Source of the DNA: Chloroflexota bacterium
Lineage (GTDB): Bacteria; Chloroflexota; Anaerolineae; Anaerolineales; UBA4823
Length of the DNA: 63,937 nt
NCBI GenBank assembly: GCA_032124675.1
Contig: JAQBDA010000231.1
Location: forward strand, 1 to 63,937
Direction: 5' to 3'
How positions within the stretch are numbered: position 1 is the first letter of the stretch; every line of letters starts with the position of its first letter. Positions 3,480 through 63,937 of this stretch are shown piece by piece. The notes beneath the pieces are model-generated. The model ran no database searches, was not told the DNA's origin, and saw only the letters and a program-made list of their open reading frames with translations. A program made the translations under genes and the position numbers.

Positions 3480-4391
3480 TCATTGATCTTCTTCTCCACT
3501 CCGCATGCGCACGTAAGATTGGTAGCGTTCCGGATGGATTTCGCCTTCAGCCAGTGCCTGGAGTACGGCACAGCCCGGTTCGTGGGTATGGGTGCAGTCG
3601 TTGAACATACAGCCCGCCACACGCTCACGCAGCTCGGGGAAATATCCGTCCAGTTCTTCTGCTTCCATATCCCATAGTGCCAGAGCTTTCAATCCAGGCG
3701 TATCAGCGATATAGCCCCCCTCTGCAAGCGGGAACATCTCCCGCACCACAGTCGTGTGCCGGCCCTTGCTTGTCGCCTGGCTGACCTCCCGTTCGCGCAG
3801 GTCCAATCCGGGCAGTATCACATTCAGCAGGCTGGATTTCCCCACTCCGGATGGCCCGGCAAACACCGACACTTTTCCAGCCAATTGCTCGCTTAGATCG
3901 TCGATCCCTACCATAGTCTTCGCACTGGTGTAAACCACAGGATAACCCACCGCCGTGTAGCGCTCGAAAAGGTCCTGGGCTGCCTCCCGGCTGACCAGGT
4001 CGACTTTATTAGCAACGACCATGGCCGGGATAACCTGCTTCTCAGCGATGACCAGGAAGCGGTCCAGCATACCGAAGCGCGGCTCTGGCTGCTGGCAGGC
4101 AAAAACGAATACTGCCTGGTCGGGGTTGGCAATGATGATCTGCTGGTATTCCCCGCTGGGGGTGGGAGCCATGCGTGAGAGCATGCGCTGGCGCGGCTCG
4201 ACACCTTCGATCATCCCCTTGCCAGGCCCCAGCTGGCTAACCTGTACCCAGTCTCCAAGCGCGGCGACATCGCCCAGGCGCGGTCCTCTCTTCAATCGAC
4301 CGCGCAGGCGAGATACCAAATCACCACCTTCCGTCCGGACGGTATAAAAACCAGATTGGGAGCGAATGATCAGACCAGGAAACGTTTTCAA
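3480..4391 (-). CDS. rsgA: Ribosome small subunit-dependent GTPase A
   Basis: Circularly permuted G motifs NKVD, GPSGVGKS, GRHTT, DTPG; Zn finger CMFNDCTHTHEPGC. Confidence 0.96.
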   Translation of the reverse strand: MKTFPGLIIRSQSGFYTVRTEGGDLVSRLRGRLKRGPRLGDVAALGDWVQVSQLGPGKGMIEGVEPRQRMLSRMAPTPSGEYQQIIIANPDQAVFVFACQQPEPRFGMLDRFLVIAEKQVIPAMVVANKVDLVSREAAQDLFERYTAVGYPVVYTSAKTMVGIDDLSEQLAGKVSVFAGPSGVGKSSLLNVILPGLDLREREVSQATSKGRHTTVVREMFPLAEGGYIADTPGLKALALWDMEAEELDGYFPELRERVAGCMFNDCTHTHEPGCAVLQALAEGEIHPERYQSYVRMRSGEEDQ

Positions 4392-4452
4392 TACTGCACT
4401 GGGTCAGGTCCTTCTACCTGCTGAAGCGGGTTGGGAGCAGGTCAATCTTCGC

Positions 4453-6705
4453 TTATGGCTCCGGGGTCGCCTCTGGCTCGGGAGTCTTCGTCACATAGAA
4501 AGTCGACTCCCACGGATACAGCTTGGCTGGCTGACCGTAGAAATACAGTTCGACCAGGCGGCGGAATATCGGTGCGGCATAATCCGAACCCTCGCCGATA
4601 TTTTCCACAACTACAACAATAGCAATATCCGGCTGGTCTGCTCGACTGGCGTCCGTGTAGCCCGCGAACCAGGCGTGTGGGTTACCCGAGCCCGATTCGG
4701 CAGTACCCGTCTTGCCATAAACCGGGATATCCAGGCCGGTAAACCGGTGCCAGGCTGTACCGTATGGATCGGTGCTGGCTACCACACCACGCATGGCTTC
4801 CTGTATCAAAGCCAGGTTTTCCGGGCTGACCGGCAGCTTACCGTACTCTTCAGGCTCGAATAGGTTCGATTCCTGCCCCTCAGGGGAAACTACACGCTCG
4901 ATCAGCTGTGGTCTGTGCAGCGTTCCACCGTTGCCGATGGCGGCAATGAACGAAGCCACCTGGAGCGGGGTCACAAGCGTCTCTCCCTGGCCTATTGCCA
5001 GGTTGGTGGCATCCACCTGACTGGCTGGGTCGGGGATATTTCCTGCCAGCTCCTCCACACCCTCGATCCCGGTCAGGCTGACGAGTCCGAATCCACGCGC
5101 CATATCCGAGATGGCTGTGGTCATATCCTGGTTATACAGGTCCAGTCCGATATGCCAGAACCAGGGGTCGCAGGAGCGGATCAATCCTTCCGGCAGGGTC
5201 AAAAGACCACTGGGGATGGTCCTGCCATCTTGAAGGTAATGCTCATATGTCCAGTCATTCAGCCTGACCCCTTCCAGCTCATCGAAGTGGTAGCCGCACT
5301 GGTAGGTAGAATCGGCGGTATAGCGCTCGCTCTCCAGGGCAGCAGCCATGGTGATGATCTTAAATACCGAACCCAGCGGGTAAACACCCTGTGTCGCCCG
5401 GTTCAGCAGCGGGTTTTCCTGGCTGGCGAATATCTCGTTGAGCAGAGTGTAATAATTGAAGTTCAATGGCTCGAAAGCGTTTGGGTCAAAATCCGGCGAT
5501 GAGACCATGGCCAGCACGCGGCCGGTGTCCCTTTCCAGCACAACAACTGCTCCGCGGAACCCTTCCATTGACTGCTGGGCTGCCAGCTGGAAATCTTTAT
5601 CCAGAGTGGTATAGATCGACTCAGAGGGTTTGGGCGAGGTCTCTGCCAGCTTGGTGACAACCTCTCCCTGGGAGTTGAGGACGCGCAACGCACCTCCGCG
5701 TGTCCCAGAGAGATATTCCTCACCCCATTTTTCCAGTCCAGCCTGCCCAACTCGCTCGTCAATGCGGTAGCCCTTGCGCAAGTAATCTTCTTCCTGTCCT
5801 TCCTGGATCTGGCTGACGTATCCGATCAGGTGAGGCGCGATGCCGCCATCGAAGTAATAGCGGGCTCTATACGGCGTGAGCATCAATCCCGCCACCTCCG
5901 AGAGATCTCCGAAATCCTCTGCCACCTCGCTCGCCGGCACTTCCCCCAACGGCACATACCAGTCGGCACCTGCCGGAACGCTCTCGTACAGTGCCTCGAT
6001 CTCCTCCTGGCGCAGCCCGGTCAGACGCTGGATAATGCCGAACAGGTCGTCTCCCTGGTCAGGGTCAGTCAAAGCCGGGCGCAGACCGATCGCAGTGGCG
6101 TCAGTCTGGGCAACCAGGGCATGACCCTTCCGGTCGTATATATTCGCCCGTGAGGGTACATAGCGCTCCATACTCAGATAATTTCCATTTGCCAGCTCTG
6201 GCATCAGCAAGGCCTGGTCCCACTGAACACGCCACTGTCCATTTTCCAGGCTCAGATTCATCACCATCTCCCGGGACAGGTCTCCCACCAGCTCACTTTC
6301 AAGGACCGTACGATAATTGACCTGGGCGCTGGTTGGACCCATCACCAGGGAGGATAAAATTTCGCTCTCGATGCGGCTGTAAGCACCCTCTGAAGCAGCA
6401 GTGCGGTAATATGTCTCGAAATCTTCGGCATTGATCGCGTCCCGGCTGATCGAGGTGAGCATAGCATACATCCTGCCGTAATCATCAGAGCTCCAGGCAT
6501 CAAGATACGCTCGTGCAGCCGTCTTAGCATCCGGCACACTGGTGGTATTCACCGTAACTGAACCCAATGTCAGGCTGGGCGAAGGTGTGCTCGTGGGTAT
6601 TTCTGTTGCGGCCGGGCTGCAGCCTACCAGACTGACCAGCGCCAGGCTGGCAAGGGTGAGGCTGAGGACCGAGATGTGAATCTTCCGAAACAGTTTATTG
6701 GGCAC
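4453..6705 (-). CDS. Class B penicillin-binding transpeptidase with NTF2-like N-terminal domain, probable lipoprotein
   Basis: SxxK (SVFK), SxN variant (SCD), KTG (GKTGT); N-terminal hydrophobic stretch ending LVGC. Confidence 0.88.
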   Translation of the reverse strand: MPNKLFRKIHISVLSLTLASLALVSLVGCSPAATEIPTSTPSPSLTLGSVTVNTTSVPDAKTAARAYLDAWSSDDYGRMYAMLTSISRDAINAEDFETYYRTAASEGAYSRIESEILSSLVMGPTSAQVNYRTVLESELVGDLSREMVMNLSLENGQWRVQWDQALLMPELANGNYLSMERYVPSRANIYDRKGHALVAQTDATAIGLRPALTDPDQGDDLFGIIQRLTGLRQEEIEALYESVPAGADWYVPLGEVPASEVAEDFGDLSEVAGLMLTPYRARYYFDGGIAPHLIGYVSQIQEGQEEDYLRKGYRIDERVGQAGLEKWGEEYLSGTRGGALRVLNSQGEVVTKLAETSPKPSESIYTTLDKDFQLAAQQSMEGFRGAVVVLERDTGRVLAMVSSPDFDPNAFEPLNFNYYTLLNEIFASQENPLLNRATQGVYPLGSVFKIITMAAALESERYTADSTYQCGYHFDELEGVRLNDWTYEHYLQDGRTIPSGLLTLPEGLIRSCDPWFWHIGLDLYNQDMTTAISDMARGFGLVSLTGIEGVEELAGNIPDPASQVDATNLAIGQGETLVTPLQVASFIAAIGNGGTLHRPQLIERVVSPEGQESNLFEPEEYGKLPVSPENLALIQEAMRGVVASTDPYGTAWHRFTGLDIPVYGKTGTAESGSGNPHAWFAGYTDASRADQPDIAIVVVVENIGEGSDYAAPIFRRLVELYFYGQPAKLYPWESTFYVTKTPEPEATPEP

Positions 6706-57977: not shown

Positions 57978-58187
57978 AGATCACGTCCCAGCAGTTTAAT
58001 CGCTGATCATGTCCATTATACAAAAATTTGGAGGAATATGTTGACGAACCCGATCCTTATGGAATTGCCTTGGGAAAAAGATCACAGACGGAAATCCTGA
58101 GGTACAATCATCGCAAATAGAAAGATGATATTTAAAACCATGGCACTGGGGGGAGCCTGGAATCAATTCGATATAAGGAGATATTCA

Positions 58188-58655
58188 ATGAAAGGCAATG
58201 ATAAGGTCATCGCATGTTTAAACGACCTGCTGTCAGACGAACTGACAGCGATCAACCAGTACATGGTACACTCCGAAATGTGCGCCAACTGGGGGTACGA
58301 AAAGCTGCACCAGATCACCGAACAGCGGGCTATCCAGGAGATGAAGCATGCTGAGATGCACATTGCTCGGATCATCTTCCTGGAGAGCACTCCGGTAGTC
58401 AATCAATACAAGAAAATCACCATCGGCAAAGACGTGACCGCGCAATTACAAGGTGACCTCGACGCCGAAACCGAGGCTGTCAAAGTATACAATGATGGCA
58501 TTCGTCTGGCAGTCGAAGCCGGTGATAACGGCACCCGCGAGATGCTCGAGGCCGTCCTCAAAGATGAGGAAGGTCACCTGGACTGGCTCGAGGCTCAGCT
58601 CGACCAGATCAGCCAGATGGGCATCCAGAACTACCTTACCGAACAGCTCGGTTAA
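58188..58655 (+). CDS. bfr: Bacterioferritin
   Basis: AAGGAG SD; ELTAINQY, EMKHA (heme Met), DEEGHLDWLE ferroxidase ligands. Confidence 0.95.
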   Translation: MKGNDKVIACLNDLLSDELTAINQYMVHSEMCANWGYEKLHQITEQRAIQEMKHAEMHIARIIFLESTPVVNQYKKITIGKDVTAQLQGDLDAETEAVKVYNDGIRLAVEAGDNGTREMLEAVLKDEEGHLDWLEAQLDQISQMGIQNYLTEQLG

Positions 58656-58744: not shown

Positions 58745-59524
58745 TCAGCCTGCAGGAGCCGGCGCCGGAGCCCGTCTGCGGTGATAAATAACACCGGCAA
58801 TCAGCAAGACCACCACAGCTCCGGAGGCGACCCATGCAGCCGCTGCCACGCTCGGGGTACCGGCATGCTTGACCGCGATGCCCACGAACGCCCAGATGAT
58901 GACCAGAAGGTAAGCTGCATCGCCTCGGGTGAACGCTATCAGCCCTGCGATAACAGTACTTGCAGCCAGCATGATCGCCGTCCAGATCTCATCACCGATC
59001 CCCCACCCGCTCCAGTTCAGATAGCTCAGCAAAGATGTAGCGTTGGCGATGGTCGCCACCGTTATCCAGCCCAGATAAATGCTGAAAGGGACATCCACCA
59101 GCCATTTCTCAGCCCTGGGCACCTCCACCAGACCGATCCCCAGGCGCAGGTAAATAGCGATCAACAGCCCCAACAAGACGACCATTACCACCAATGTCAG
59201 CGGGAATATGTTGTAATGCCATAGGAACAACCAGACGATATTGGCAAGGCAGCTCAGGATGAACAGCACATCGATGCTTGCCAGGCGGGGATTGGTGCGC
59301 TGAGCAGGCAGCACCTGGTAAACCGAGTAAAGGATCAACCCGAGATAGATCACCCCCCATATAGAAAAGACATATCCCGCAGGCACAAAGTAGACCGGAA
59401 AGCGATCCGAAATCTCACCGGTCATCTGTCCATTCAATGGCAAGGCATTTGCCAGCCCATTTATAGCAATGGTAGCCATCACGGCCAATATAACGAGCAT
59501 CTGTACGGTGACACTTCGCTTCAT
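58745..59524 (-). CDS. Tryptophan-rich sensory (TspO/MBR-related) membrane protein
   Basis: PAGYVFSIWGVIY, NIVWLFLW, PFSIYLGWITVATIAN; multiple TM segments; GGAGG SD. Confidence 0.78.
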   Translation of the reverse strand: MKRSVTVQMLVILAVMATIAINGLANALPLNGQMTGEISDRFPVYFVPAGYVFSIWGVIYLGLILYSVYQVLPAQRTNPRLASIDVLFILSCLANIVWLFLWHYNIFPLTLVVMVVLLGLLIAIYLRLGIGLVEVPRAEKWLVDVPFSIYLGWITVATIANATSLLSYLNWSGWGIGDEIWTAIMLAASTVIAGLIAFTRGDAAYLLVIIWAFVGIAVKHAGTPSVAAAAWVASGAVVVLLIAGVIYHRRRAPAPAPAG

Positions 59525-59643: not shown

Positions 59644-60204
59644 TTACTCTACAAGATGGGCGGCGGCATCGCGTGAATGGACTACCTTCCCATACGTGCC
59701 ATCCAACGCTGCCAGAAATGACCGGTGGACAAAATCCGCAGTAACCTGCTGCCCCTCAAACTGGAGGTCCCGTGTTGCACAGGCGTCCCCGGCGATAAGA
59801 CATTCGAAACCCAGATCATTAGCTGCGCGTACAGTGGCATCGACACACATATGGGTCATCATACCGCAGACCAGCAGCCGGGCAACCTGGCTGCCGTGCA
59901 GGTGCTCCAGCAAATGGGTTTCCCGGAAGCTATTCGGGAAGTGTTTTTGGATCACGGTTTCGCTTTCCCGCGGTTGTATCGATGGGTGAACCTCAACCCC
60001 CGGCGTTCCCGGTTGGAAGAAAGCTGCTCCAACCTGGGTGGCGATGTGCTGGACAAAGACCACCGGCTGTTGGGTCTGCCGGAAATAATCCAGGAGATAT
60101 CCGGCTTGCTGGCTGGCTTCAAGGCTACCGACAAGTTCCATTTTCCCGCCCGGAAAATAGTCGTTCTGGATATCAACCAGCAAGAGTGCGGTTTTCTTCG
60201 TCAT
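59644..60204 (-). CDS. Cysteine hydrolase (isochorismatase family)
   Basis: ALLLVDIQNDYF, KHFPNSF, GMMTHMCVDAT. Start likely 60204. Confidence 0.9.
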   Translation of the reverse strand: MTKKTALLLVDIQNDYFPGGKMELVGSLEASQQAGYLLDYFRQTQQPVVFVQHIATQVGAAFFQPGTPGVEVHPSIQPRESETVIQKHFPNSFRETHLLEHLHGSQVARLLVCGMMTHMCVDATVRAANDLGFECLIAGDACATRDLQFEGQQVTADFVHRSFLAALDGTYGKVVHSRDAAAHLVE

Positions 60205-60361
60205 CGAGCACCTTTCAATTACGGGATATCGATTGACACCGTTCAAGCAGGATCAATCGCTGATTTAAGGTTAGCGTTATAATCTTACCATCCATTCAGT
60301 GGACACTATACCCTGCTCTCGTTTCCGGCCCACCCAGCCAATACTGCTACGGATATGACCC

Positions 60362-61585
60362 ATGATCACCCCAGAAAAAATCGACGAATGGATCAAAGAA
60401 GCCGCAGAGCGACCTGAATCTGCGTCCATGATCATCCAGCACCTCGCAAAGCGGCTGCGCTATCTGGCGCAGCGCAATGAAGAACTGCACAATGAGAACA
60501 TCGCCCTGATGTCCGGTGAACGGGTTGAGGAGTACGAACGCCGTATCACTCATCTGGAATACCAGCTCGACCTTCTTAAGCGCAGGCTCAGCGCTGAGAT
60601 AACGCTGCCGGATGCCGCAGGTGATCCTTATCAAATCGAAGCTTCCCGGCCAACCAAAACCAGCAGCATACTGGTGTATGACCATCTAGGTCATATCCTC
60701 CGCCTCCCGGTCAACCTGGAGGAGATGGAAAGCGGCGCTATGCTATCCTACATCCAGACCGATATTGCCCGCAGGCAGGAGCCACCCGGGATGCTGGCTC
60801 TGCTTTCGTCCGATGAGCTGCTGCTGGTGTTCAATTCTGGGCGGGTCGCGGCGCTTCCTGTGGAGGAGATAGCCGCCTCCCCGGCAGGCGGACAGCTAAC
60901 CCTGGACCAGGCACCCATCCCGGATGAGCCGCGCGGTATCGAACGTCTGGCATGCCTGGTGCCGATTGCCAGGCTGCCCCTGATCGATTCGATTATTCAG
61001 GTCAGCCGCAAGGCTTATGCCAAGAAAATTGGGTCCTCGATGATCGAAACGATCCTGGCAAACCAGTATATCGGTTCCGGGGTAAATTTACCTGCCGACC
61101 AGACTTTAAATGTCATCCTGTGTGGAAACGCGGACCAGCTTATCCTGGTCAGCCGAATGGGATATCTCTTACGCATCGAAGCCCGGCATGTATCACATTC
61201 TATCGAGGCTGCGATGCGCTTAGGAAAAACCGATCACCTCGTCTCGGGGTTCCTGATCTATCCTCAACAATCGGTTCTGGTAGCTACACAAACCGGGAAG
61301 CTGATCCATCGTGCGGAGGACAGCTTCGAGGTCAGCACTACTGCCCACACCAAAGGCTTGCCCGTGGTTTCAAAATCCCGCCGTGAGCAGGGCGTGCGGG
61401 TTGTCGGCGCGGCGGCGGTCAGCGAGGATGACTGGGGTGCTGCTCTGCATAAGGATGGGACGATCACACTGCACTCTATGACAGACTTATTTGCCAGCGG
61501 GACGATCCCTGTGGATAGCGAACTGCTGGTATTCACCCGCCTGCCGCTCCCCAGGGCTGAGGTGCGTACCACCGGTGAGGGCTGA
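60362..61585 (+). CDS. Coiled coil plus stand-alone gyrase/topo IV C-terminal beta-pinwheel-like repeats
   Basis: Six repeats of about 50 aa with a hydrophobic strand followed by a Gly turn (SILVYDHLG, ELLLVFNSG, SIIQVSRKA, QLILVSRMG, SVLVATQTG, WGAALHKDG); no topoisomerase catalytic core. Confidence 0.7.
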   Translation: MITPEKIDEWIKEAAERPESASMIIQHLAKRLRYLAQRNEELHNENIALMSGERVEEYERRITHLEYQLDLLKRRLSAEITLPDAAGDPYQIEASRPTKTSSILVYDHLGHILRLPVNLEEMESGAMLSYIQTDIARRQEPPGMLALLSSDELLLVFNSGRVAALPVEEIAASPAGGQLTLDQAPIPDEPRGIERLACLVPIARLPLIDSIIQVSRKAYAKKIGSSMIETILANQYIGSGVNLPADQTLNVILCGNADQLILVSRMGYLLRIEARHVSHSIEAAMRLGKTDHLVSGFLIYPQQSVLVATQTGKLIHRAEDSFEVSTTAHTKGLPVVSKSRREQGVRVVGAAAVSEDDWGAALHKDGTITLHSMTDLFASGTIPVDSELLVFTRLPLPRAEVRTTGEG

Positions 61586-62926
61586 GTGGGATTGAATATC
61601 GGCCTGGACTTCGGTACATCCAATTCCGGCGTGGCGGTCAGCGATGGCGAACGGGTGAAGCTGCTCGCCATCGACCAGCAGAATATGCTGCCCGAGGTGG
61701 TGAAATCCATCCTGTATATCGATCGCAGCCACCGCTGCACCATCGGGCAGGAAGCCATCGAGTTGTACTACCGGCATAACGTCAACCGCCTGCGCCGCTA
61801 CGTGAAGAAGCGGGCAGGCGAGCTGGATTTTCGCGGCGCTGAGATGTACTACGTGCGAGATGTCTATGTTTACGTGGACGAGCTCAAGCCGGGACGGCTG
61901 CTGCAGTACCTGAAAACCACGCTGCGTGAGCCCAGTGGACCCAACGGCTATGCGGGCACGCAGGTCTTCGATCGCTATTACGAAGTGACCGACTTGATCG
62001 GAGCCTATCTGCAGGAGCTGAGGAAACGCGCCGAAACGCTGCTGGGGGAACCGGTCAGTGGGGCAACCCTTGGCAGACCAGTGAAATTTTCAGACGACCC
62101 GCTGGCAGACCGTCATGCGGAAGAGACGCTGCGCCAGGCTGCGCTCCAGGCAGGGTTTACACGGGTGGATTTCGAGCTTGAACCGGTGGCAGCAGCACTG
62201 TACTACGAGAAGACGCTGGATCGTCCGCAGAATGCCCTAATCTTCGACTTCGGCGGTGGCACGCTGGATATCGCCATCATGCACCTGGGGGACCCTGCAG
62301 GACGTCGCGTCTACGCCAGCGGCGGGATCGGCATCGCCGGCAGCGACTTCGACCGGACGATCATCCAGAAGCGCCTGCTGACCCACTTTGGCCAAGGAGA
62401 GGTGCACCACCAGCCAGAACTCCTTGATCTGATCCAGGCTGTGCCAGATTGGGTTGCCCTGCCTGAAATGAGCACACCTCTCACCCGCCAAAACCTGGAG
62501 ACCGCCATCCAGAACGGCATCGCCCCAGCCAGGCTAAGCGCATTGATAGCATTGATATTCAACGACCTGGCGTTCTCATTCTACAACCAGGTCGAAGCAG
62601 CTAAAATCGCCCTATCGGAGCGTGGAACAGCAGTCATCAAGCTGCAGAACCAGGGTATCGATCTTTGGGAGCTGTACACACGGGCTCAGTTCGAGGCGGA
62701 TATCTACGAGCAGCGGGTGGAAATTCAGAAAGTGCTGCTGGAGACAGTAGCCGCTTCCGGGCTGGAACCAGACCAGATCACAGCAGTTGTCCGGACCGGT
62801 GGGTCGTCCAATATCCCGGTGTTCAGTGCCATGCTGGGTGAAATCTTCGGTCCCGAGCGGGTGATTGCATCGAACACATTCAGCAGCGTGGTCTCCGGGC
62901 TGGCGATCCGCGCTGGCAGCAGATAA
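61586..62926 (+). CDS. Hsp70-family ATPase lacking the substrate-binding domain (YegD-like)
   Basis: GLDFGTSNS, EPVAAA, DFGGGTLD, GSDFDR, TGGSSNIP; ends after the NBD. Confidence 0.88.
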   Translation: MGLNIGLDFGTSNSGVAVSDGERVKLLAIDQQNMLPEVVKSILYIDRSHRCTIGQEAIELYYRHNVNRLRRYVKKRAGELDFRGAEMYYVRDVYVYVDELKPGRLLQYLKTTLREPSGPNGYAGTQVFDRYYEVTDLIGAYLQELRKRAETLLGEPVSGATLGRPVKFSDDPLADRHAEETLRQAALQAGFTRVDFELEPVAAALYYEKTLDRPQNALIFDFGGGTLDIAIMHLGDPAGRRVYASGGIGIAGSDFDRTIIQKRLLTHFGQGEVHHQPELLDLIQAVPDWVALPEMSTPLTRQNLETAIQNGIAPARLSALIALIFNDLAFSFYNQVEAAKIALSERGTAVIKLQNQGIDLWELYTRAQFEADIYEQRVEIQKVLLETVAASGLEPDQITAVVRTGGSSNIPVFSAMLGEIFGPERVIASNTFSSVVSGLAIRAGSR

Positions 62927-62991
62927 GACTTTCGACGAAGCCCATAGCTCTTGCTTACAGAACTGAGTGCTTGCGTTACATGTCTCAGCCT

Positions 62992-63627
62992 TCAAGTACT
63001 TACAATTCTTGCAGCAACCCCCGAATAAAGTGCAGCCACACCAAAGAGCATGATCACCACCCCGGAAATCCGGTTGACCCACAGCAAGAGACCTGGTCGC
63101 ATTTTCTGGCCAAATAAACCCACCCCGGCGCTCAGGATGAACCACCACAGCGCAGAGCCAAGGAATACTCCAACCACAATCAATATGGCGGAAAGCAAAT
63201 CCCGGCTCTCCGCCACCAGCCCCAGACCGGTGAAGACTGCTGCAAATGCGATGATCGTGACCGGGTTGGTCAAAGTTAGGAAGAAAGTCGACAGATACGC
63301 GCTGACCAGGCTCTCATTTTTCAGCTCACCATCCTCAACCTGTGGTCTGCTGACCAGGGTGCGGTAGCCCAGGTAAAGCAGGTACAGCCCGCCAACGACC
63401 TTCAGCACGTCCTGGTAGCCGATCAGAAAACCGGCAATGAAGCTCAGCCCGAAAGCTGCGATTGCCCCGTAAACAGAATCGGCGCTAGCTGCCCCCAACC
63501 CAGACACCAGCCCGGCAGCCCGCCCGTACGCCAGCGTGCGCCGGATGCACAGCACACCGATCGGCCCCACCGGCGCGGCGATGGAAAAGCCGATCACCAG
63601 GCCGCGTAAGAAAAGGCCAGCATCCAT
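62992..63627 (-). CDS. LysE-family translocator
   Basis: IAAPVGPIGVLC, G...GLGAA.AD, TLTNPVTI. Start likely 63627. Confidence 0.9.
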   Translation of the reverse strand: MDAGLFLRGLVIGFSIAAPVGPIGVLCIRRTLAYGRAAGLVSGLGAASADSVYGAIAAFGLSFIAGFLIGYQDVLKVVGGLYLLYLGYRTLVSRPQVEDGELKNESLVSAYLSTFFLTLTNPVTIIAFAAVFTGLGLVAESRDLLSAILIVVGVFLGSALWWFILSAGVGLFGQKMRPGLLLWVNRISGVVIMLFGVAALYSGVAARIVST

Positions 63628-63637
63628 ATACCCACCA

Positions 63638-63937
63638 CTAACGATCACCGGTCCGTTGCCCGACTAGCGTGAACAGGCTGTCCTCGGGCTTCACGGGATC
63701 GAAGCTGAACCTGCTGTACGTGACCACATCTCTTAACCCAGCCTGCTCAAATAGCGATCGCGCCTGCCGCTGGGTATATGAGCGCGTGGCAGGTGAGCGG
63801 TGGTGAAGCTCCTCCGCCAACACCACGCCGTCCAGTATCACCTGGTACAGGTCTTCGGTGTGCTCGCACGCCGTCTCCGGCTCATAGCGGGAGCGCGCCA
63901 CCCGGCGGATGACCGCCCCATCCTGGGGGCGTTCTTC
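63638..63937 (-). CDS. Partial CDS open to the window edge, probably a SAM-methyltransferase C-terminus
   Basis: The frame stays open from 63937 (EERPQDGAVIRRV...). The tail LFEQAGLRDVVTY resembles class I methyltransferase C-termini. Confidence 0.5.
   Translation of the reverse strand, partial: EERPQDGAVIRRVARSRYEPETACEHTEDLYQVILDGVVLAEELHHRSPATRSYTQRQARSLFEQAGLRDVVTYSRFSFDPVKPEDSLFTLVGQRTGDR

Follow-up and report, generated by a model that had tools for sequence, protein, structure and literature searches.

A YegD-like Hsp70 ATPase paired with, or fused to, a gyrase-type pinwheel in Anaerolineae

Canonical Hsp70 proteins (e.g. DnaK) combine an ATPase nucleotide-binding domain (NBD) with a substrate-binding domain (SBD). 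Hsp70s composed of the NBD only, such as YegD, are widespread and the question addressed here is what such a motor acts upon when it has no SBD. The function of E. coli YegD (NF008673/PRK11678, 'molecular chaperone') is given as unknown in PMC13232886 and in the YegD passages of a 2026 review (PMC13580251), which also describes NBD-containing 'DnaK derivates' of the Myxococcales, i.e. Hsp70 NBDs that lack an SBD and carry added domains of unknown function. In E. coli, yegD adjoins yegI, pphC and yegJ, and there is no pinwheel gene at this location. Six-bladed pinwheels form the C-terminal domains (CTDs) of the topoisomerase subunits GyrA and ParC. A natural stand-alone GyrA CTD is Gac of Borrelia burgdorferi, a basic DNA-binding protein made from an internal start inside gyrA, for which we know of no ATPase partner. 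Here, we describe a locus on a 63,937-nucleotide contig of an Anaerolineae bacterium (JAQBDA010000231.1; the whole of this stretch is termed the window) in which a gene for a pinwheel protein, named pin, directly precedes a gene for a YegD-like, NBD-only Hsp70-family ATPase, named hsp. The two genes are paired in related genomes, the two modules are fused in a second protein family, their association arose once in the NBD lineage and the ATPase motifs are intact.

Pairing and domain content of Pin and Hsp

The pin gene occupies positions 60362..61585 of the forward strand (407 aa; coordinates include the TGA stop), as defined by its open reading frame (ORF), family alignments and >640 homologues. 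The hsp gene follows at 61586..62926 of the same strand (446 aa; coordinates include the stop) and was defined by its ORF, profile matches and homologues. At the junction (61583..61588, forward strand), the pin TGA (61583-85) is succeeded in frame and without a gap by the hsp GTG (61586-88). Inspection of the sequence identified a Shine-Dalgarno-like GGTGAGGG at 61574..61581 (forward strand) within the 3' end of pin, leaving a spacing of 5 nt to the GTG. An alternative start for hsp is an in-frame TTG at 61592, giving a gap between the two genes of either 0 or 6 nt. Tight coupling was the rule in relatives, with a median of 3 nt between the pin stop and the hsp start and an ATGA overlap in 30 of the 76 loci measured. 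Amongst the loci with called genes, gaps of 3 nt were found in L009, L010 and L011, the exception being L008, whose pin ORF continues in frame into the start of hsp. Programmed read-through of the in-frame TGA was considered as a candidate and rejected; the in-frame arrangement is not conserved among relatives, where the ATGA overlap predominates, and hence there was no sign of such a mechanism.

The homologues of pin were all ~400 aa in length and every carrier found was an uncultured metagenome-assembled genome (MAG). Those with a named taxon were all Chloroflexota, mostly Anaerolineae, with the exception of one bin labelled Bacteroidota. This bin contains a typical Anaerolineae pin-hsp pair (L102, JBLMZU010000271.1) and a Nitrospinota-labelled bin contains a YegD-like gene (L198, CAVPRW010000034.1); both labels are probably binning errors. 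An hsp gene was present directly downstream of pin and on the same strand in all seven loci of a first set and in every one of the 79 related loci with room for it, the sole locus without hsp ending 139 nt after pin. Across related loci, identities to the window proteins were 61-86% for Hsp and 39-77% for Pin, with Hsp being consistently the better conserved, and the two identities were correlated (r = 0.88 across 74 loci) as is expected for vertical descent. Clustering of 461 flanking ORFs from 80 loci detected no family in more than 14 loci, and hence no third conserved component; the recurrent families (i.e. bacterioferritin, rubrerythrin-like and kinase-like) probably reflect local synteny. 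In a 401-genome sample of the phylum, only the source genome (i.e. G000) and G330 contained a true pin orthologue and these same two genomes alone contained a close hsp orthologue. Divergent pairs were found in other Anaerolineae families (i.e. L104, L105, L109, L110, L116 and L117). As L105 (1342-5095) has a 391-aa gene inserted between pin and the NBD gene and L044 has a pin-NBD gap of ~1.07 kb (1066-1088 nt), strict abutment is not obligatory. In L117 (2644-6596; genome G646), a divergent pin is followed by two tandem NBD paralogues (3803-5236 and 5145-6596), a layout that was also observed in G726.

Hsp matched the Pfam HSP70 model (PF00012) with an E-value of 3.9e-24 and 85.2 bits (gathering threshold of 20.6), with only the NBD part of the model being aligned. 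The YegD model NF008673 was matched from end to end (E 3.2e-48; residues 5-443 on model positions 3-445 of 450), with a score of 164.7 bits that is below the curated equivalog cut-off of 331. With a length of 446 aa as compared to an expected ~450 aa, Hsp is a YegD-like NBD-only protein, and both the PF00012 score and the catalytic motifs place it in the Hsp70 family. The motifs DFGTSNS, the lysine in YLKT, EPVAAA, DFGGGTLD and RTGGSSNIP were all intact. Two full-length DnaK-like proteins are encoded by the source genome on contigs C291 and C236. Aligned with these proteins, Hsp extends as far as the last NBD helix and stops short of their DVLLLDV linker, and no DVLLLD-type linker, SBD or lid was present in Hsp.

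Residues 101-394 of Pin (60662..61543, forward strand) form a predicted six-bladed beta-pinwheel of the GyrA/ParC-CTD type, as identified by profiles, an AlphaFold2 (AF2) model and Foldseek. Single-sequence matches of Pin were weak yet specific to such CTDs, with E-values of 4.7e-7 for TIGR01063 (over model positions 540-771 of 800 only) and of 6e-8 for the ParC CTD of PDB entry 1wp5. A family profile built from 119 homologues detected only GyrA and ParC CTDs in the PDB (E 1.8e-17 to ~1e-8). The AF2 model, made on the same 119-homologue alignment, had a predicted local distance difference test score (pLDDT) of 87.7 and a predicted template modelling score (pTM) of 0.81, with a disordered stretch at residues 80-95 and a beta-rich region at 101-394 containing six repeated units of three or four strands. 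In a Foldseek search of the PDB with this model, the top 20 matches were all GyrA/ParC CTDs (5.7e-17 to 1.5e-7; probability 1.00) and the next match was non-significant. Six blade motifs were also visible in the family alignment. The pinwheel of Pin is thus homologous in fold to the solved GyrA/ParC CTDs, and the N-terminus has no topoisomerase subunit A core with its catalytic tyrosine, being instead an unrelated helical head. The Pfam repeat model PF03989 did not match the window Pin at E <= 1, and precomputed matches to it were found in a few homologues. An acidic linker of low confidence (residues 80-100; 60599..60661, forward strand) separates the head from the pinwheel, with pLDDT values of <50 at residues 80-88 and 91-95 and variable columns in the family alignment. 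The source genome encodes a second stand-alone gyrase-type pinwheel protein outside the window (367 aa; contig C288, 6220-7323, forward strand), which has a short acidic N-terminal coil, a GyrA-box-like QKRGGMG and a PF03989 score of 58.2 bits (cut-off of 27), and whose gene has no Hsp70-type neighbour. Similar proteins of ~355-390 aa were found in other Anaerolineae (i.e. G567, G587, G660 and G751).

The head (residues 1-79; 60362..60598, forward strand), delimited from the AF2 model and from conserved columns, contains three predicted helices (4-16, 18-51 and 53-79) and is the best-conserved part of Pin, with a mean column identity of 73% across 36 loci. Columns W10, R17, P18, R31, L42, N46, L49, V55, L65-Q68 (i.e. 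L65-E66-Y67-Q68) and L72 were invariant and R74 was also conserved. A search of 1.84 billion representative proteins with a head profile yielded 154 clusters and no more (114 at E <= 1e-10). In these, the head forms the N-terminus of proteins that are mostly 380-420 aa long (overall ~340-450 aa), or of shorter fragmentary sequences. Internal matches were weak and limited to two proteins, of 634 and 343 aa (E ~1e-5), where they resemble chance coiled-coil matches; by this search, the head is confined to the Pin family and occurs in no other architecture.

Fusion proteins, NBD phylogeny and genomic setting

Searches of the phylum and of the class with Hsp also produced open frames of ~800 aa that contain NBDs. 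Two of these fused proteins, from G250 and G322, are 801 and 825 aa in length and have NBDs with 40-43% identity to Hsp by BLASTP (42-44% in the genome search). Their C-terminal ~350 aa alone matched GyrA/ParC CTD models, namely TIGR01063 in one protein (E 7.5e-7) and PRK05561 in the other (E 2e-6). A search seeded on the C-terminal part found a fused family of at least 125 clusters at 90% identity, with lengths of 780-820 aa, from Ardenticatenaceae, Candidatus Leptofilum, Promineifilaceae and others. Their sole annotation is 'Hsp70 family protein', and several members had precomputed PF03989 matches among the matches listed. The architecture consists of the NBD, a linker of ~30 aa, a short 'LxLLxRRI' helix and the pinwheel. 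An AF2 model of one member (796 residues; pLDDT 86.5, pTM 0.77) placed the NBD at 1-445, followed by a lower-confidence linker, the helix at 477-488 and the pinwheel at 498-787; as the pTM is high for a two-domain chain, this model suggests that NBD and pinwheel have a defined mutual arrangement. The fused protein of G322 (L013, 3335-5812) has a (V)VHDR tandem repeat of ~5 copies just after the first phosphate-binding loop of its NBD.

The fused family lacks the Pin head with the exception of its last helix motif, an almost invariant 'NLxLLxRRI' that aligns with the 'LEYQLxLLKRQ' at the end of the head. For this reason, we infer that the head may be a non-covalent substitute for the tether, and docking of the coiled-coil head on the ATPase is plausible. 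A comparison of NBD column conservation between split and fused forms, made in search of a docking surface for the head, detected scattered type-II sites only and no regional clustering. The split and fused pinwheel profiles were homologous (hhalign probability 92%, E 5.9e-7). Divergent pins matched both profiles and so bridge the two families, which would argue for a continuum of split and fused pinwheels. In the class sample, ~17 genomes contained the fused form, ~10 contained the split form and none was seen with both. The neighbourhoods of four fused genes shared nothing and contained varied housekeeping genes.

A maximum likelihood tree was generated for 55 NBDs and rooted on the DnaKs of the source genome. 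All of the pinwheel-linked NBDs (i.e. 15 split, seven divergent split and 14 fused) formed one clade with a Shimodaira-Hasegawa-like approximate likelihood ratio test value of 98, which also included four or five unpaired paralogues. The association with the pinwheel therefore has a single origin in this NBD lineage, and fusion or fission rearranged it afterwards. Other Chloroflexota families have stand-alone YegD-like proteins with no pin neighbour, and these fell outside the clade, as did a group of NBD proteins of ~600 aa with a different C-terminal domain. Members of the latter group (~600-627 aa) are sister to the pinwheel-linked NBDs and were located in L111 (3356-5158), L112 (3322-5205), L113 (3449-5317), L114 (3582-5426) and L115 (664-2481). 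Their unannotated C-terminal domain of ~160 aa has conserved LSGLPxIRxAQADK, VAYDA and GGN motifs, and its presence suggests that YegD-type NBDs of Anaerolineae may swap target modules.

Adjacency, fusion and a shared phyletic pattern together define pin and hsp as a conserved two-gene module. A preliminary description of the window, drawn from its sequence, had reported a zero-gap TGA/GTG abutment and an Hsp70-family ATPase with all nucleotide-binding motifs and no SBD, had proposed that the two genes form a system and had named co-occurrence in gene neighbourhoods as a check. These claims have stood: the abutment is that of ORFs 60362-61585 and 61586-62926, the ATPase is as described by both the motif set and the DnaK alignment, and a two-gene system is borne out by adjacency in 79/79 related loci with room downstream, the NBD-pinwheel fusions, the single NBD clade and the r of 0.88.

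The pair is present in a single copy in the source genome and has a native base composition (G+C of 0.57-0.59 as compared to 0.555 for the genome). A scan of positions 60100-63100 for sigma-70 promoters and intrinsic terminators found no more sites than in shuffled sequences and none that were usefully placed. The immediate neighbours are genes for a weakly TspO/MBR-like membrane protein (58745-59524, reverse strand), an isochorismatase-family hydrolase (59644-60246, reverse strand) and a LysE-type exporter that is convergent with hsp (62992-63648, reverse strand), none of which is conserved beside the pair in other loci. A bacterioferritin gene (58125-58655, forward strand) lies a short distance upstream of the pair, as it does in 14 of 80 related loci, and a rubrerythrin-like gene recurs in another 14 related loci. 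Both are iron/oxidative-stress genes and their recurrence is probably local synteny among close relatives.

A proposed ATP-driven machine and competing explanations

On balance, we lean towards the view that Pin and Hsp are two halves of one Hsp70-derived, ATP-driven machine, specific to the Anaerolineae, in which the pinwheel is the target-binding module. Hsp, as a YegD-clade Hsp70 NBD with a complete catalytic site, would be the motor, and Pin would supply the target-binding module, i.e. the role of the SBD in canonical Hsp70. The pinwheel would have descended from the CTD of the A subunit of gyrase or topoisomerase IV, and would be held covalently at the NBD C-terminus in one branch of the family, with the branch of the window producing separate polypeptides from a putatively translationally coupled operon. 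In this second branch, docking of the three-helix Pin head on the NBD would stand in for the covalent tether, and the head may in addition form dimers. The ATP/ADP state of the NBD would control binding and release of the pinwheel ligand, as the NBD of DnaK governs its SBD, and this ligand could be nucleic acid or protein. Judged by its genomic setting, the pair is more likely to serve a cellular function particular to the lineage, in proteostasis, stress or nucleoid biology, than to act in defence.

Several observations weigh against this machine. The similarity between split and fused pinwheels is modest and no stronger than that of either to true GyrA CTDs, such that the pinwheel could have been recruited twice rather than split once. 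Paralogues of the same NBD clade occur without a pinwheel neighbour in some genomes (i.e. L103, L106 and L108) and the NBD can apparently exist alone. In L103 (3994-6284), no pin lies upstream of the paralogue, whose stop is overlapped by the gene for a P-loop protein of 288 aa (GAPDSGKST). The pair or the fusion was found in only ~7% of the 401-genome class sample and so the system is not essential. Single ORFs in the order pin then NBD were detected in L008 (8001-9764; P0037), L059 (3989-6511) and L069 (4001-6535), being 840-844 aa in L059 and L069 and broken by a later frameshift in L008. These three come from MAGs of one project with contig_N names, taken to be long-read assemblies, and the single ORFs may be assembly (indel) errors or else a second, in-order type of fusion.

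The preliminary description had assigned the pinwheel to DNA or topoisomerase targeting, with the pair forming a DNA-architecture, stress or defence module. In a DNA-architecture or topology module, the pinwheel would bind or wrap DNA, or mimic a GyrA/ParC CTD on a topoisomerase or SMC-type partner, and the ATPase would load, release or remodel the complex. The pinwheel is homologous to the DNA-wrapping GyrA/ParC CTDs and to nothing else, and alignment of the Pin profile with full-length E. coli GyrA begins within the helix ahead of the CTD. Conserved basic residues occupy blade-motif positions (i.e. R114, R161, R216, K221, K222, K313, R340, R341 and R346), and an MgsA/RarA-type gene follows the pair in L010 and L011. 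The pinwheel is, however, acidic overall, with a net charge of -6 and a pI of 5.85 (family medians of -5 for Pin and -4 for the fused proteins). This is a weak argument, as net charge is a weak test of DNA binding when the GyrA CTD of the same genome is itself neutral (net charge of 0, with +6 for a second GyrA/ParC-like CTD). The GyrA box, Q(R/K)RGG(R/K)G, was absent from blade 1 in all 119 Pin and all 111 fused sequences, whereas the GyrA of the source genome carries QARGGRG, and no DNA-metabolism gene was present among the conserved neighbours. The targeting claim was therefore not upheld by the charge, pI and GyrA-box results. DNA binding is still conceivable because of the ancestry of the pinwheel and the conserved basic blade residues, and we regard a DNA-architecture module as a tentative and rather unlikely explanation. 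A 'DNA-directed Hsp70' is similarly speculative and unlikely. Here, the ATPase would power a gyrase-derived pinwheel that holds on to DNA, or to a DNA-bound, topoisomerase or SMC-type partner, and would so remodel nucleoprotein complexes in filamentous Anaerolineae; if true, the orphan YegD branch of the Hsp70 family would gain its first concrete partner and a logic for its targets.

A role within the proteostasis network, without a target of its own, is improbable. Pin would then regulate the NBD as a GrpE-like exchange or activating factor, or the NBD would act in Hsp110-like fashion on DnaK with the pinwheel as adaptor. The combination of a helical head and a beta-rich domain beside an Hsp70 NBD recalls GrpE, in which a long helical region is likewise combined with a beta domain, and there are two full-length DnaK-like proteins in the source genome; NBD-containing DnaK derivatives of unknown role are described as widespread in PMC13580251. 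Nevertheless, profile and Foldseek searches detected no sequence or fold similarity to GrpE or another exchange factor, no J-domain or GrpE gene was linked to the pair among the flanking ORFs of 80 loci, and covalent fusion in a large family is more in keeping with a client or target module than with an exchange factor that binds transiently. The defence role of the preliminary description fared poorly and is very improbable, as is any other conflict system. A compact, self-contained module with a patchy occurrence in the class (~7% of sampled genomes) would suit such a role, but searches of PADLOC-DB 2.0 gave no significant match (best E-values of 0.056 and 0.0039 over short stretches), the flanking genes are metabolic or housekeeping and differ between loci, the pair is single-copy with native G+C (0.57-0.59 as compared to 0.555) and both proteins have diverged in a correlated manner, as under vertical descent. 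The module encodes no nuclease, protease, TIR, Sir2 or membrane effector, and the only matches in a viral structure library were to viral topoisomerase subunits. Equally hard to credit is an actin-like polymer with an adaptor, on the pattern of ParM/ParR, in which the NBD protein would polymerise and Pin would link it to a cargo. The NBD does have the actin/Hsp70 (ASKHA) fold with secondary matches to MreB models, and the L117 pin is followed by tandem NBD paralogues, but the best matches of Hsp are clearly to Hsp70 and YegD and not to MreB, ParM or FtsA, and an adaptor fused to its motor is ill-suited to a filament-plus-adaptor design. We know of no Hsp70-type NBD that polymerises.

Comparison with known systems

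The ATPase described here is an Hsp70-family protein whose client module is non-canonical, being either supplied by a separate partner or fused to the same chain. For the pinwheel-linked clade, the architectural half of the question of what an NBD-only motor acts upon is thereby answered, with strict operon linkage and, in many lineages, covalent fusion fixing the partner. Elsewhere, the partner domain is known from type IIA topoisomerases only, such that a gyrase pinwheel has been reused outside a topoisomerase, and fusion/fission within one family is a classic signature of interacting proteins. The result is a defined two-component or single-chain system that can be expressed and assayed for complex formation, ATPase coupling and ligands. 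In every search made, the pair and the fused family were restricted to Chloroflexota, and no description of an Hsp70-pinwheel pair or fusion was found in full-text searches of the literature, in agreement with the preliminary description, whose author knew of no such system. The Myxococcales DnaK derivates of PMC13580251 are an example of the same phenomenon, i.e. an NBD minus its SBD plus other domains, and the YegD passages of that review mention neither a pinwheel partner nor a pinwheel fusion.

E. coli YegD is, like Hsp, a protein of ~450 aa comprising an Hsp70 NBD alone; Hsp differs in that its clade is a separate one, linked to a pinwheel partner, and in scoring below the equivalog cut-off. 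DnaK has the same ATPase fold and catalytic motifs as Hsp, and its layout of NBD, linker and beta-rich C-terminal module is matched by the fused relatives. Hsp lacks the hydrophobic linker, the beta-sandwich SBD and the helical lid of DnaK, and the beta module is here a six-bladed, topoisomerase-derived pinwheel which, in the window, is made as its own polypeptide from a gene upstream of that for the NBD. The GyrA/ParC CTDs (PF03989) share the six-bladed pinwheel fold with Pin and are significantly homologous to it, but Pin has no topoisomerase core or GyrA box, is mildly acidic and has a unique three-helix head. Both Gac and Pin are gyrase-type pinwheels without a topoisomerase core; as compared to Gac, Pin is encoded by an independent gene and has both a head domain and an obligatory Hsp70-type neighbour.

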